Source: a virus
Lineage: Duplodnaviria > Heunggongvirae > Uroviricota > Caudoviricetes
Reading direction: 5' to 3' (one strand)
IMG/VR virus record: IMGVR_UViG_2974586480_000001
Length of the DNA stretch: 64,000 bases
A program made the translations under genes and the position numbers. Positions 32,484-38,647 of the stretch are shown here, piece by piece (the stretch's first letter is position 1; every line of letters starts with the position of its first letter). Under the pieces are notes generated by a model. The model worked only from the letters and a program-made list of their open reading frames with translations. It searched no databases and was not told the DNA's origin.

Positions 32484-32510
32484 TGGGCTTGTAATGAGCC
32501 CACTTTAAGA
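32484..32510 (+). terminator. terminator-like hairpin
   Basis: GTGGGCT-tgtaatg-AGCCCAC followed by TTT. Confidence 0.4.
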
Positions 32511-32643
32511 AGGGTTAGGGCATGTAGCTCAGTGGATAGAGCAGTTGGCCCAAACCTGTGTACCCTGTGGGGGTAACTACTGCAAACCTTTTGAACAACC
32601 AATTGGTCGTAGGTTCGAATCCTACCTAGTCCTAGCCCTTCTT
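32508..32643 (+). ncRNA. tRNA-like RNA with a roughly 50-nt insertion at the anticodon-loop position, enclosed by a 13-bp terminal helix (Y-RNA/YrlA-like tRNA mimic candidate)
   Basis: There is a canonical D-arm (GCTC-AGTGGATA-GAGC) and T-arm (GTAGG-TTCGAAT-CCTAC). A short variable loop (TGGTC) is present. The anticodon stem GTTGG/CCAAT flanks a 50-nt insert (cccaaacctgtgtaccctgtgggggtaactactgcaaaccttttgaacaa). The acceptor-like stem is imperfect, but the flanks AAGAAGGGTTAGG and CCTAGCCCTTCTT pair over 13 bp. No CCA is encoded. Confidence 0.45.
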
Positions 32644-32657
32644 AAAGGTTATATAAA

Positions 32658-33032
32658 ATGCTTCAACGTTTTGTTGTTAATATGGCAAACTCACTGCCAA
32701 CCATTCTTTGGATGTACGCTGGTAGTCTGGTTGTTAGTGCAGTAACATTCTCATGGGCAGAAGGTAGAACTCTGCTCGATGGTCTTTGGTGGAGCTGTGC
32801 AACGGCTTTAACCATTGGTTACGGGGACATTGCCCCTGTAACAAATCTTGGAAAGTTCATAGGGTTGATCTTTGCCCACTTCTGGGTGCTGGTAACAATC
32901 CCGTTTGTCGTCGCAAACATAATCGTAAAGGTTATCAGAGATGATGACGCTTTTACTAACGATGAACAAGAGCTTATCAAGAGTCAGTTGTCTGAAATCT
33001 GTGAAGCTTTAAAAAGGAAAGGTGATCTATGA
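32658..33032 (+). CDS. Kcv-like minimal potassium channel (2TM/P-loop)
   Basis: Selectivity filter 'TALTIGYGDIAP' flanked by two hydrophobic helices. 124 aa. Confidence 0.65.
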   Translation: MLQRFVVNMANSLPTILWMYAGSLVVSAVTFSWAEGRTLLDGLWWSCATALTIGYGDIAPVTNLGKFIGLIFAHFWVLVTIPFVVANIIVKVIRDDDAFTNDEQELIKSQLSEICEALKRKGDL

Positions 33033-33580
33033 AGATCGTCCTGAAACATGGCATCATTGCCTCTGTGGTGATGGCTGCGATGACTGGCTGTTCTCCTGAA
33101 CCTGATACCACTGTAACCACGGTAACTTCTGTTGAAGAGTGCGTACAAAGCTCTCTCGGAACCACCGATGAGTGCCAAGCCACTTGGGATCAGGCCAAGC
33201 AAGAGAATGCCAAAGTAGGCCCTCGATTCGAAGATTCGGGGGATTGTTCTTCAGAGTTTGGTAAGTGTGAGCAATACGTTGTTCAGAACTCTGATGGAAC
33301 CACATCTAACGTCTTCATTCCAATGATGATGGGTATGATGATGGGTAACATGATGTCCAACAACGGATCTCACATTACCCCTCAGCCGCTTTATCGTAGT
33401 GAATCTGATCGGAAAGATGGCCGGTCGGGCTTCGTTGCTGCATCTGGTGTCTACGTAAACAAGGGCTCTTCTCAAGTTAGCTCTCGTTCCGTAGTAGCCA
33501 AGTCACCGACCTCGGTTTCCCGTGGTGGGTTCGGTAGCATCGGTGGTCGTTCAGGTGGTGGTTTCTCTTCTGGGAGTTAA
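33029..33580 (+). CDS. DUF1190 (YgiB/YjfM-like) lipoprotein
   Basis: Lipobox 'AMTGCSPE'. The 'DC..EFGKCEQ', 'FIPMMMGMMMG' and 'VSRGGFG' motifs parallel E. coli YgiB. The next gene is coupled by ATGA. Confidence 0.55.
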   Translation: MKIVLKHGIIASVVMAAMTGCSPEPDTTVTTVTSVEECVQSSLGTTDECQATWDQAKQENAKVGPRFEDSGDCSSEFGKCEQYVVQNSDGTTSNVFIPMMMGMMMGNMMSNNGSHITPQPLYRSESDRKDGRSGFVAASGVYVNKGSSQVSSRSVVAKSPTSVSRGGFGSIGGRSGGGFSSGS

Positions 33581-33582
33581 AG

Positions 33583-34791
33583 ATGGAACGTGTGCAAGTA
33601 CCCAAGGTTCGGCCTGACTGGAAAGAGCAGGTAGTGAGAGATGGTATGCTGTGGGCAGATACTGAAGATGGCCCGTATTGGTTTGAAGCCATGCAACAAC
33701 CAGTGTACTATAAATTCAGGGAAGTTGAAATAGACTCTCTGATGAAAGGTGGCGAGGTAATTCACCAAGCCATCCTTGAAGTCCTCACGAACCTCCTGAG
33801 CGATGGTGTTGAGAAAGAGTATGCTGAGAAATGGCGTAAAGCCTTCGGCCTCTCTGAGAAGTTATGGGATTTGGTCAAATACTCGTTCAACATTTCTGAT
33901 GAATGGGAATTCTTTGGCCGGTTCGACTTCTTAATGACCAGCCATGGCCCCAAGGTTTTGGAATACAACGCAGATACCCCGACAACTCTCATTGAGAGTG
34001 CGGTGTGTCAGTGGAACTGGTTTCAAGACATGGGCTTCGAGAAAGGTAGTCAGTTCAACAACATCCACGAGGGGTTGGTAAATCGTTGGAAAGAGCTCAA
34101 CGAGTTGAACAATCTCCGTGGCTCGGTAAACTTCGTCTCGGTCAACTTGATCGATGATGTGGCCACCTTGTGTTACATTGCAGAGACTTGCCGAGAGGCA
34201 GGCCTGGAAGTCCGTGTATTCCCTGTAGAAGATATTCAGTTTGATGAAGATAAAAAGGTGTTTCTCGATAATGAGGGGAATGTCTTGGAAAACTGCTTCA
34301 AGCTGTATCCTTGGGAGTGGATGATTCACGAGAAATTCAGTGAGCATCTGAGCACGGCTCCTACACGTTGGATGGAACCTGAATGGAAGTTGTTGGTGTC
34401 TAACAAGGCGATCCTCGCTCTGTTGTGGGATTACTACGGTGACACTTCGCATCCGGTTGTTAAATACCTGATGCCAACTTACATGGAAGGTGATTTCGGT
34501 GATTGGGATGGCAGTTGGGTAAGCAAACCCACCTTGAGCCGTGAGGGATCTGATGTCAAAATCATCAAGATTCACCAAGGTCAAGAAGAAGTCCTGTACT
34601 TCCACACCGGAATGTACTCCGAGGAATCTCGGGTGTATCAAAAGTTTATCCAATCTTTGACCTTTGAAGGATGCGTCCCAATGTTAGGTGTTTGGATGGC
34701 TGGCCCAGAAGCAGTTGGGCTCGGTATCCGTGAAGATGATTCACTGATTACCAAGAATAACAGCCGGTTCATACCGCACGTTTGGGAGTAA
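33583..34791 (+). CDS. glutathionylspermidine-synthetase-family (YgiC/YjfC-like) ATP-grasp amidoligase
   Basis: 'LLVSNKAILALLWDYYGDTSHPVVKYLMPTY' matches the GspS-family signature 'lsNKailplLWelfp.hpnLLpayf'. 402 aa. It pairs with the DUF1190 gene as in the E. coli ygiBC operon. Confidence 0.65.
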   Translation: MERVQVPKVRPDWKEQVVRDGMLWADTEDGPYWFEAMQQPVYYKFREVEIDSLMKGGEVIHQAILEVLTNLLSDGVEKEYAEKWRKAFGLSEKLWDLVKYSFNISDEWEFFGRFDFLMTSHGPKVLEYNADTPTTLIESAVCQWNWFQDMGFEKGSQFNNIHEGLVNRWKELNELNNLRGSVNFVSVNLIDDVATLCYIAETCREAGLEVRVFPVEDIQFDEDKKVFLDNEGNVLENCFKLYPWEWMIHEKFSEHLSTAPTRWMEPEWKLLVSNKAILALLWDYYGDTSHPVVKYLMPTYMEGDFGDWDGSWVSKPTLSREGSDVKIIKIHQGQEEVLYFHTGMYSEESRVYQKFIQSLTFEGCVPMLGVWMAGPEAVGLGIREDDSLITKNNSRFIPHVWE

Positions 34792-34799
34792 TAAGCTAA

Positions 34800-34837
34800 A
34801 AGGTTTGTAGCAGTTTTTGCTGCGAACCTTTTGTCAT
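34800..34837 (+). terminator. compound hairpin terminator
   Basis: AAAGGTT-tgtaGCAGtttttGCTGCg-AACCTTT followed by TG. Confidence 0.45.
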
Positions 34838-37460: not shown

Positions 37461-37467
37461 GGTATAT

Positions 37468-37671
37468 ATGGATTTCTTTGAGATTTTTACTAAAGTCTTT
37501 GTAATGCTTTTTTGCGCAATTATTTCTTTATTTATTGCAATAGTTCCGCCATCTTGGGTAAATGATAGAACTGGAAATTCATTCTTAGCTTTATTGACAT
37601 TTTTATTTTCTTTGTCAACGGCTTCCTCTCTATTGATCTATGCTGTACATTGGTTAAAATACAATTTTTAG
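37468..37671 (+). CDS. small membrane protein
   Basis: 67 aa and hydrophobic. Confidence 0.4.
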   Translation: MDFFEIFTKVFVMLFCAIISLFIAIVPPSWVNDRTGNSFLALLTFLFSLSTASSLLIYAVHWLKYNF

Positions 37672-37682
37672 AGGGTTTTATT

Positions 37683-37880
37683 ATGAAAAAGCGTTTCGTT
37701 TCTCCCCGTTCCAAAAACCATAACCAATTGGTGAAGGTTCTCGATCAGAACTTCCGTGGTTCTTTTGTTGAGGTTGTTTCCACCGGTAAGCGGTTTTACT
37801 GCAACCCTGCAAACCTCCACAAGATCACCAACAAAGATCTTTTGTCGAAAGATAAAGGTTACAATCATCACTGCCCCTAA
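37683..37880 (+). CDS. small basic protein
   Basis: ATG at 37683 after a GAGGG RBS. 65 aa. Confidence 0.4.
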   Translation: MKKRFVSPRSKNHNQLVKVLDQNFRGSFVEVVSTGKRFYCNPANLHKITNKDLLSKDKGYNHHCP

Positions 37881-37907
37881 GAAATCACTACGGTGACGGA
37901 GAAAGAT

Positions 37908-38519
37908 ATGTTTTACGAAATCCACGTTACGGTTAAATGCCCACGATATGAAATCCCCAGATTTGAAAAAATCTGCAAAATCCTCAATGTCAAGCCTATA
38001 GTTATAGTGCTTGAGAAGGGTTCTGAAGAGGTTATGCAAGATGTAATGACCTCTTCAAAGGTGGATGTGGCATCTGTCGCAGAAGCGGTGAAAATGTCTA
38101 TGGACATTGAGAACAAACTGAAGTACCACCGTTTCCGTGTTGTTCGCCGTAAAGTGGAAACCATGCCTATCCATCCTCTGGCACCTCAGTTTGAAAGCGA
38201 CCCCATGCCGGTAAACTGCTACTTTGAAAGCCATATCCAAGTAGTTGTAGAACGGGATGGTCAGAAAAATCTCCTCGATCACATTGCAAAAGAGAGCAAA
38301 GCCCATAAGAGCCGTAACGCATTTAAAAAGATGCTTGACGGTTCCTACATCCAGATGCTCACTTTGCGGGATCACAACACCAACAAAACTTCTTTTTCAG
38401 AAGCAGTTGCCTCTCTTCGGGGTTCTCTGGAATTTGCTGGGTTTACCCTCGGTAAGATGGAAGTAGAGTTCGCAATTTTCGACACCAATGTGCACCATGA
38501 TAAGGTGTGGACTGGTTGA
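37908..38519 (+). CDS. hypothetical protein
   Basis: ATG at 37908 after a GGAGAAAG RBS. The CACTACGGTGAC motif sits at positions -22 to -11. Confidence 0.5.
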   Translation: MFYEIHVTVKCPRYEIPRFEKICKILNVKPIVIVLEKGSEEVMQDVMTSSKVDVASVAEAVKMSMDIENKLKYHRFRVVRRKVETMPIHPLAPQFESDPMPVNCYFESHIQVVVERDGQKNLLDHIAKESKAHKSRNAFKKMLDGSYIQMLTLRDHNTNKTSFSEAVASLRGSLEFAGFTLGKMEVEFAIFDTNVHHDKVWTG

Positions 38520-38527
38520 GTTTTTAA

Positions 38528-38647
38528 TGGGTTGTAGCGCAGTTGGTTAGCGCACCGGAGCAAAAACAGGAGTCTGAGAGATTCCTTACAGCAACCCTAA
38601 TGCTAGGGAACCGGTGGTCACAGGTTCGAGTCCTGTCAACCCGACCA
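38528..38647 (+). ncRNA. tRNA-like gene with a roughly 52-nt insertion in the anticodon loop (intron-containing tRNA or tRNA mimic)
   Basis: Acceptor TGGGTTG/CAACCCG with ACCA. D-arm GCGC-AGTTGGTTA-GCGC. T-arm ACAGG-TTCGAGT-CCTGT. Variable loop TGGTC. The anticodon stem CCGG/CCGG encloses 'agcaaaaacaggagtctgagagattccttacagcaaccctaatgctagggaa', which has internal hairpins (GGAGTC-tgaga-GATTCC, CCCT-aatgct-AGGG) and the CCTTACAGCAACCC motif. Confidence 0.5.

Follow-up and report, generated by a model that had tools for sequence, protein, structure and literature searches.

The stretch of DNA analysed here, called the window throughout, is 64,000 nt long and forms the 3′-terminal 64 kb of the record NC_048773.1, which is Aeromonas phage 4_4572, a 103-kb phage of the genus Lahexavirus; a window position is the NC_048773.1 position minus 38915. 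Two tRNA-like loci with long inserts at the anticodon-loop position lie within it, together with nine small free-standing hairpins (36.56 kb; 40.0–41.0 kb) and a gene whose product has a Ro60-like predicted fold. The two loci and their inserts are as follows.

32518..32633, + strand: locus 1, tRNA-like RNA (Rfam tRNA model; ARAGORN -i call Gln(ttg) i(32,41); tRNA-Leu in GenBank)
32504..32646, + strand: extended terminal helix of locus 1 (32504–32517 pairs with 32633–32646, 14 bp, one of them G.U)
32549..32598, + strand: insert of locus 1, 50 nt (direct reading; capped-hairpin scan)
38528..38647, + strand: locus 2, tRNA-like RNA (Rfam tRNA model; ARAGORN -i call Pro(agg) i(33,43))
38559..38610, + strand: insert of locus 2, 52 nt (direct reading; repeat family D1; capped-hairpin scan)

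An earlier reading of these letters without database searches (the sequence-only reading) had described both loci as tRNA-like genes with inserts of about 50 nt, and the covariance-model scan that it proposed agrees. The Rfam tRNA model (RF00005) matches both over its full length, at 32518–32633 with 46.8 bits (E 7.5e-7 in a search space of 64 kb) and at 38528–38644 with 49.2 bits (E 1.7e-7, same search space), while the YrlA and tmRNA models match neither. Both scores exceed the Rfam gathering threshold of 29 bits and are greater than or similar to that of the phage's ordinary tRNA-Cys (42.9 bits). The alignments skip 49 nt (locus 1) and 52 nt (locus 2) in the anticodon loop; ARAGORN misses both loci in its default mode and calls them with its intron option on. 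D arms, T arms (TTCGAAT and TTCGAGT) and type-I variable loops, here of 5 nt, are canonical in both, as had been read from the letters. Locus 2 has an intact 7-bp acceptor stem (U1.G72), a D arm, a 4-bp anticodon stem (CCGG/CCGG), a T arm and, at its end, an encoded A73-CCA (38644–38647), as do all 20 ordinary tRNAs of the phage, whereas locus 1 has two acceptor mismatches, a D arm, a 5-bp anticodon stem (GUUGG/CCAAU), a T arm and no CCA. The flanks of locus 1 extend the acceptor by a coaxial helix, counted previously as 13 bp and found here to be 14 bp, and the minimum free energy (MFE) fold contains a continuous 19-bp terminal helix (z = -3.1). The plain MFE fold of locus 2 misses the cloverleaf (z -0.1), which the covariance model recovers.

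Both loci lack the 7-nt loop of a normal anticodon arm, in which U33 and a purine at position 37 flank a readable anticodon; 50 or 52 nt stand in its place, and no canonical loop lies beside the 3′ strand, unlike in 64 of the 147 relatives described below. The suspicion that the anticodon cannot be read unambiguously is confirmed by conflicting calls: locus 1 is tRNA-Leu in GenBank and Gln(ttg) by ARAGORN, and locus 2 is Pro(agg) by ARAGORN. Locus 2 is annotated in none of the four Lahexavirus records. In the relative LAh_9 (L213), a RefSeq 61-aa ‘hypothetical protein 27’ (6978–7163) covers the locus 2 homologue and is probably a spurious coding sequence.

The inserts share a module with the free-standing hairpins. 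This module, here called the handle, opens with 5′-AAG and the 5′ strand of a 7–9 bp stem, which the motif (C)YUACAGCAA directly abuts. Behind a variable interior and an A-rich stretch come the 3′ strand of the stem and CUGU-3′. Each insert is a capped handle: a short loop connects its two strands, and the tRNA body takes the place of the variable interior. The insert of locus 1 runs from a linker through the capped hairpin UACCCU-gug-GGGGUA (32561–32575) and the motif ACUGCAAACC (32579–32588) to a second linker. That of locus 2 begins with an A-rich linker, followed by the capped hairpin AGGAGUCU-gag-AGAUUCCU (38568–38586), the motif UACAGCAACCC (38587–38597) and a small hairpin, CCCUA-augc-UAGGG (38595–38608). 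Hairpins in the inserts and a word shared with an array at 40–41 kb had also been noticed earlier. The word is real, as a repeat finder pairs 38573–38598 with 40871–40896 (81 % identity over 26 nt), and the array is a structured family: in a permissive Rfam scan, sub-threshold matches to one small-hairpin family cluster at 36.56 kb and 40.0–40.9 kb. A covariance model, R1, was built from 13 handle copies of this phage and Vibrio phage MS02. Searched with R1, the window yields exactly nine free-standing units of 57–70 nt that share the handle plan, all on the + strand, and the other 39 kb of the phage genome nothing convincing.

36555..36614, + strand: handle hairpin, 3 nt past the CCA of tRNA-Met (R1 54.3 bits; alignment A3)
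40021..40081, + strand: handle hairpin, 3 nt past the CCA of tRNA-Cys (R1 60.9 bits)
40106..40172, + strand: handle hairpin with the CUGCAA motif variant, as in locus 1 (R1 34.1 bits)
40170..40230, + strand: handle hairpin (R1 52.0 bits; RF01414 29.6 bits)
40628..40697, + strand: handle hairpin with UUUGA-CUUUUAA-UCAAA, a Lys(UUU)-type anticodon-arm mimic (R1 54.2 bits; anticodon-arm scan)
40743..40799, + strand: handle hairpin (R1 55.0 bits)
40811..40875, + strand: handle hairpin (R1 44.4 bits)
40874..40935, + strand: handle hairpin, nearest relative of the locus 2 insert (R1 61.5 bits; repeat D1)
40939..40995, + strand: handle hairpin with UCGA-CUCAUAA-UCGA, a Met(CAU)-type anticodon-arm mimic (R1 54.8 bits; anticodon-arm scan)

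The handle is a real structured element. In the 13 copies its stem is fully paired (100 %), and 6 of the 7 pairs have changed on both sides. A set of 91 copies taken from other contigs shows 99.5 % pairing in the stem and compensatory change at each of the 7 positions; its covariation score of 0.89 compares with 0.22 in shuffles and at most 0.13 for slid partners. The units abut one another and tRNAs, and the last stops 10 nt short of the start codon of the Ro60-like gene. A role as promoters or terminators was considered and rejected: sigma-70-like sites (15 vs 15.5) and terminator-like sites (11 vs 9.4) are at background, and the hairpins are not terminators because U-tracts are absent and terminator-like sites are not enriched. 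In the capped handles the terminal signatures are suggestive, not conclusive; in about two-thirds of them a strand ending in CU or UU is followed by a cap loop whose first letters are G, UG or GU, and only 13 of 33 show AG at the 3′ strand.

Two further elements in the window recall the handle. Right behind the CCA of locus 2, at 38652–38674, lies a mini-hairpin, AAG-UAGGAU-CUGGUAU-AUCCUG-U, which starts with AAG, ends in CUGU and has a loop of 7 nt that resembles an anticodon loop; it lacks ACAGCAA and may be a minimal or degenerate handle. At 47033–47135 on the - strand, just downstream of the gene for RNA ligase 2 (Rnl2), a 14-bp inverted repeat surrounds ACTGCAAACC; it matched a loose regular expression only, not the covariance model, and is possibly due to chance.

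The gene that follows the array encodes the proposed protein of the system.

41005..42396, + strand: Ro60-like protein, DUF2828 and DUF7788, helical ring plus vWA domain with MIDAS; proposed handle partner

DUF2828 and DUF7788 are its only Pfam matches, TROVE (PF05731) not being among them, and its identity to Ro60 is only ~15 %. The AlphaFold model is confident (predicted local distance difference test score, pLDDT, 87.3; predicted template modelling score, pTM, 0.87), and the top nine Foldseek matches in the Protein Data Bank (PDB) are all Ro60/TROVE structures (E 1e-10 to 2e-7). The protein has the architecture of the Ro60/TROVE family, a helical-repeat ring and then a vWA domain bearing the MIDAS motif DxSxS...T...D, and the MIDAS residues are invariant across 36 homologues. 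As modelled, the protein is thus Ro60-like along its full length. One search returned at least 2,717 proteins of this family. DUF2828 is mentioned in plant and tardigrade papers, and therefore the family is not confined to phages.

Handle and protein are linked in both directions. Among 88 viral loci and the Vibrio phage MS02 locus, selected by the protein only, R1 found 76 matches, all 76 on the strand of the gene and mostly within a few hundred nt of its ends. Another 80 loci from bacterial and archaeal assemblies, likewise selected by the protein only (33–47 % identical), gave 44 matches with the same placement, 44/44 on the gene's strand. Conversely, when 120 viral loci were selected by an RNA pattern only (ACAGCAA, 22–42 nt, GGTTCGANTCC; 147 pattern matches), the Ro60-like protein was the commonest neighbour, at 37 loci against 8 for the next family. 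All nine copies in phage 4_4572 lie within 4.5 kb upstream of the Ro60-like gene, and the distant phage MS02 shows the same arrangement of hairpins, an insert-bearing tRNA and the same kind of protein. A larger gene system was looked for and rejected: an AAA ATPase beside locus 2 recurs in only 2/88 and 5/120 loci, and a membrane protein and the other window genes do not co-occur. Three contigs binned as Pacearchaeota or Woesearchaeota, both DPANN archaea (L228, L247 and L286), also carry Ro60-like genes with co-oriented handle hairpins; these could be archaeal viruses, mis-binned phage contigs or genuine archaeal copies.

The handle is combined with tRNA parts in several topologies. Among the short copies, 41 of 84 display an anticodon-arm mimic, defined as a stem of at least 4 bp with a 7-nt loop holding U33 and a purine at 37, where shuffles give 4.0 +/- 1.8; CUUUUAA, CUGUUAA, CUUGUAA, CUGCUAA and CUCAUAA are the loops seen most often, and two window units (40628 and 40939) are of this kind. 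Capped handles inside a complete tRNA, as in the window, make up 39 of the 147 pattern matches by ARAGORN call, and in 28 of these 39 a capped hairpin with 6 bp or more stops 0–3 nt ahead of the motif (3.6 +/- 1.6 expected). An open handle with a permuted tRNA is found in contigs L062 (5998–6113) and L086 (767–884), where the order is the 3′ strand of the anticodon stem, T arm, loop-closed acceptor stem, D arm and the 5′ strand of the anticodon stem. ARAGORN called 0 of 26 open-handle RNAs in their native order and 8 of 26 after rotation at the acceptor loop, and GCCA is present in some of the acceptor loops of permuted forms. In phage MS02 (L002, vB_VpaP-MS02, OR102882.1) a tRNA-like gene is both split and permuted (5925–5999 and 6120–6176). 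The 3′ half lies upstream and has one handle strand and the motif in front of it (GGAAAUCU-AACAGCAAACC), and the 5′ half lies downstream with the other handle strand (AGAUUUCC) behind it; a complete insert-bearing tRNA (6002–6116) lies between the halves. When these are rejoined, the ARAGORN call is identical to that of window locus 2. To our knowledge, split or permuted tRNA-like genes have not been reported in a bacteriophage.

Other unusual tRNA calls were encountered near Ro60-like genes. Calls of ‘tRNA-Ile(tat)’ of 90–95 nt, unusually long for an Ile tRNA, recur in tRNA clusters beside the gene (L010, for example at 1433–1524, and L025, L029, L030, L035, L046, L071, L074, L080, L086, L089 and L090) and may represent another atypical tRNA or tRNA-like RNA. 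Insert-bearing tRNAs that lack ACAGCAA occur at L088 3638–3765 and at L012 7363–7474, 7754–7874 and 8171–8383; one of their inserts holds a second T-arm-like element (GGGTTCGATTCCC), and three have a common acceptor/T-arm body with differing inserts of 30–118 nt. Further kinds of tRNA fusions may therefore exist.

The RNA architecture with its covariation, the topologies, the genomic linkage and the Ro60-like fold are shown here; physical binding, processing and a biological role are inferred. As the best explanation, both loci are probably members of a widespread phage RNA family that forms a Y-RNA-like particle with the Ro60-like protein, and are neither YrlA RNAs nor intron-bearing tRNA genes. 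The family is undescribed, and its pairing of handle RNA and Ro60-like protein new, as far as a literature search shows; that search turned up nothing on this system under DUF2828/DUF7788 function, the handle motif or phage YrlA. Its non-coding RNAs consist of a conserved handle and a tRNA-derived module. In the window version a short loop closes the handle at the anticodon-loop site of an otherwise complete cloverleaf; the nine hairpins are the same handle with open ends and carry only a small stem-loop, which in many cases mimics an anticodon arm. The putative binding site of the ring-plus-vWA protein at 41005–42396 is most likely the handle. In locus 1 the flank helix is probably not the Ro-binding element; the capped hairpin and motif inside the insert are the better candidate.

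Ro60 with YrlA RNA is found in bacteria and phages; YrlA of Mycobacterium smegmatis is cleaved by RNase P and receives CCA (PMC4201824), and the Ro60 of Thermus phage phiLo binds phage-encoded Y-like RNAs and the host PNPase (PMC12135203). The particle proposed here would be a functional analogue, the protein gripping the handle and the tRNA-like part being shown to tRNA-recognising proteins. Its purpose, most likely although speculatively, would be to decoy, sequester or tether, in the infected cell, those enzymes of the host whose substrate is tRNA, for instance anticodon nucleases or enzymes of tRNA processing and repair; the display of many different anticodon-arm mimics and tRNA bodies favours a decoy, sponge or tether. 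The RNAs would probably be cut from longer + strand transcripts. Capped handles may be cut at the cap, where the G, UG or GU starts of the loops resemble the CUGU end of the free units, and such cleavage would leave the handle ends free in every topology, so that all would share one architecture, already present in the split Vibrio gene.

Several observations weigh against this explanation. The handle is unlike the known Ro60-binding helix of Y RNAs, and locus 2, with its intact acceptor stem and encoded CCA, is like real tRNAs. Elsewhere, 64 of the 147 handle-tRNAs (~44 %) keep a perfect anticodon arm, against 6.2 +/- 2.3 expected, which would also suit the precursor of a decoding tRNA; in that class the handle often lies within the 5′ strand of the anticodon stem, and the window loci belong to the other class, without an anticodon arm. 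On the protein side there is the missing TROVE match, and profile similarity to Ro60 in the PDB is marginal (E 9e-4 to 0.08) and limited to the vWA segment; the protein is therefore a distant paralogue, not an orthologue. No copy of it is present in 83 of the 120 RNA-first fragments, whose median length is only ~7 kb, and no nuclease, ligase or ATPase is consistently linked to handle RNAs in the surveyed loci. The decoy role is speculative and rests on the display of anticodon-arm mimics.

Comparison with the Ro60 (Rsr)–YrlA system (RF02553; PMC4201824, PMC12135203) shows where the analogy holds. In both, a ring-plus-vWA gene adjoins small RNAs that join a protein-binding stem to a tRNA-like domain, and the relatives in L062 and L086 have exactly the YrlA order of T arm, closed acceptor and D arm. 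Unlike that system, the window protein belongs to DUF2828/DUF7788, and the RNAs number up to eleven per phage rather than one or two. The Ro60-binding module of YrlA carries a conserved GNCGAA(N)G (PMC4201824), whereas the handle has YUACAGCAA with AAG and CUGU ends and its consensus, TnAAGAnTnCTTACAGCAAnCC...TCTGT, does not contain that motif. Many handle RNAs show only an anticodon-arm mimic, a true anticodon arm persists in ~44 % of the long forms, and the window topology is inverted, ending at the acceptor stem with the handle capped. The sequence-only reading had likened locus 1 to YrlA, as a mimic of tRNA arms. Its intuition of a Y RNA was right in kind; the assignment to YrlA was wrong.

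The strongest competing explanation, one judged rather unlikely, is that the loci are short-intron tRNA genes of a new type, permuted or split in relatives, in which the handle is a processing signal akin to the archaeal bulge-helix-bulge (BHB) and excision and ligation yield normal decoding tRNAs; the ligase would be that of the host or the phage Rnl2 (46105–47028), and the Ro60-like protein a maturation chaperone. Complete cloverleaves above the Rfam threshold at both loci, the CCA of locus 2, the phage-encoded RNA ligase and the canonical 7-nt loops of the 64 relatives, which carry many different anticodons, are what such genes would show. Permuted and split forms are likewise known among the disrupted tRNA genes of archaea and algae (PMC4033280). 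The archaeal and red-algal genes (PMC4033280, PMC4090602) resemble the present loci in being interrupted by tens of nt at or close to the anticodon arm and in their split two-piece and circularly permuted arrangements. They differ in that no BHB turned up here, although no dedicated BHB search was made, and in that the host is a bacterium with no known splicing endonuclease. The ARAGORN insert sites are at loop positions 32 and 33, not at the canonical 37/38 of protein-spliced tRNA introns. Group I introns of bacterial and phage tRNA genes share the anticodon-loop position in a bacterial-type tRNA gene; they are >200 nt long. The inserts of 50–52 nt have no catalytic core (P3–P9), and models of group I introns, small ribozymes and tmRNA gave no match in the window even at E <= 5.

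An intron had been the other possibility raised from the letters, and it is not supported, given that the insert is a conserved module that also stands free, often without an acceptor or T arm, and so is not only an intron. The free-standing hairpins cannot be tRNA precursors and yet bear anticodon-arm mimics. At neither window locus does any excision yield a 7-nt loop without ambiguity, and the acceptor of locus 1 is mismatched and without CCA. No endonuclease or ligase co-occurs with the RNAs, Rnl2 being present at 0 of 208 loci. Ordinary tRNAs already cover every identity suggested for the two loci: the main cluster of 18 tRNAs, 55 kb away, includes Asn, Gln, two Leu, Pro and Lys, and two further ordinary tRNAs lie within the window.

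36478..36552, + strand: tRNA-Met(CAU), CCA encoded, handle hairpin right behind (ARAGORN; Rfam 64.7 bits)
39945..40018, + strand: tRNA-Cys(GCA), CCA encoded, handle hairpin right behind, unannotated in GenBank (ARAGORN; Rfam 42.9 bits)

Since these identities are served and the anticodons are unreadable, the window loci are poor candidates for decoding. Among the handle-tRNAs with a retained anticodon, redundancy with ordinary tRNAs of the same contig is at chance (11 of 64 vs 12.9 +/- 2.6 expected); as the contigs are fragments, this test carries little weight. An origin of the loci by recent duplication of ordinary tRNA genes of this phage was also considered and rejected: no close paralogue was found, and the best match of locus 1 is a tRNA-Asn of a Vibrio phage.

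It is less likely again that the loci are tRNA pseudogenes, functionless chimeras left when a repetitive intergenic handle with its true role elsewhere, for example in RNA processing or transcript punctuation or as a selfish repeat of a hyper-variable region, inserted by chance into two tRNA genes and destroyed them. Such a history would fit the degraded, CCA-less acceptor of locus 1, the punctuation-like abutment of handle units with one another and with tRNAs, and the plasticity of the array. Compared with the close relatives LAh_6, LAh_8 and LAh_9 (L211–L213), the array is a hot spot of change (36555–36614 and 39940–40230), and the hairpin at 36555, tRNA-Cys and several further hairpins are replaced or interrupted by endonuclease genes among these phages. 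In all three, unrelated sequence stands in for the hairpin after tRNA-Met, and in LAh_8 and LAh_9 an endonuclease or Icd-like gene replaces tRNA-Cys and the first hairpins; elsewhere, HNH-type endonucleases are the second commonest neighbours of handle RNAs. Within the two loci, however, the helix substitutions keep or improve pairing, and the remaining substitutions sit in loops.

Locus 1, acceptor pair 3–70: G.U to A-U (LAh_6/8/9 comparison)
Locus 1, flank helix: G-C to G.U (C-to-U) in LAh_6/8/9, pair kept
Locus 2, acceptor pair 1–72: U.G to U-A, improving the pairing (LAh_6/8/9 comparison)
Locus 2, handle hairpin: G-C to G.U in LAh_9

Dozens of unrelated contigs carry such chimeras, and their D, T and acceptor arms are intact (the 39 ARAGORN calls and the permuted forms), with the capped hairpin conserved, and locus 2 has a split homologue in the distant Vibrio phage. 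The window loci score 47–49 bits where the ordinary tRNA-Cys scores 42.9 bits, and the hairpins, without U-tracts, are not terminators.

That the loci are ordinary YrlA RNAs with a Ro60 (Rsr) partner, diverged beyond detection by the model, is very improbable and largely refuted by failed membership tests: the YrlA model does score 22–23.5 bits (gathering score 69) at the permuted and split tRNA pieces of phage MS02 and the protein fold is Ro60-like, but in 32–42 kb of the window the model has no match at E <= 5, the handle motif differs with GNCGAA absent (PMC4201824), the protein has ~15 % identity to Ro60 and no TROVE match in Pfam, and the RNA ends at its acceptor stem instead of in a protein-binding stem.

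The handle also resembles the Class I RNAs of Dictyostelium (RF01414; PMC7919456). The free-standing hairpins share with these all features of sequence and structure that have been described: a length of ~60 nt, an AAG start, a covarying short terminal stem that is conserved in structure and not in sequence, an 11-nt motif (CCUUACAGCAA) directly past the 5′ strand, a variable interior and a CUGU end; in the two tRNA-like loci the module is capped. The RF01414 model aligns end to end with 8 of the 9 window hairpins at 19.1–29.6 bits, below its gathering score of 41.5. The host differs, being a phage and not an amoeba, and the DUSE promoter (~60 nt upstream) is eukaryotic and not applicable to a phage. 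Class I RNAs have been reported absent outside Dictyostelia by a search that did not include phages, and their only known direct binder in Dictyostelium is the RRM protein Rnp1A (PMC7919456). The likeness may reflect common descent, horizontal transfer or convergence.

A bolder proposal, which is doubtful, would place the handle RNAs of phages in one RNA class with the Class I RNAs of Dictyostelium, sharing a DUF2828/DUF7788 Ro60-like partner, as a third and hitherto unrecognised lineage of Ro-type ribonucleoproteins across phages, bacteria, archaea and eukaryotes, the phage RNAs being a decoy library of tRNA parts against host defences that target tRNA. Should the best explanation given above, the Y-RNA-like particle, hold, the DUF2828/DUF7788 family, represented at hundreds of viral and microbial loci, would gain a fold identity and a specific RNA ligand, and Y-RNA biology would extend to a second, independent pairing of protein and RNA. 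Capped, permuted, split and arm-only fusions would amount to a natural experiment on the uses of tRNA mimicry, and arrays of anticodon-arm mimics beside phage tRNA clusters would suggest a new layer in the conflict between phage and host over tRNA cleavage. A testable hypothesis would follow for the Class I RNAs, which are abundant, lack a mechanism and are reportedly confined to social amoebae. Annotation would also be corrected, as one locus is deposited as tRNA-Leu, the other was missed and a coding sequence was called over a relative's copy.

Directly 3′ of locus 1, at 32658–33032, lies a gene for a 124-aa potassium-channel-like protein with a TIGYGD selectivity-filter motif. It is followed downstream by genes for a DUF1190 protein and a glutathionylspermidine synthase, an odd metabolic cargo for a phage.

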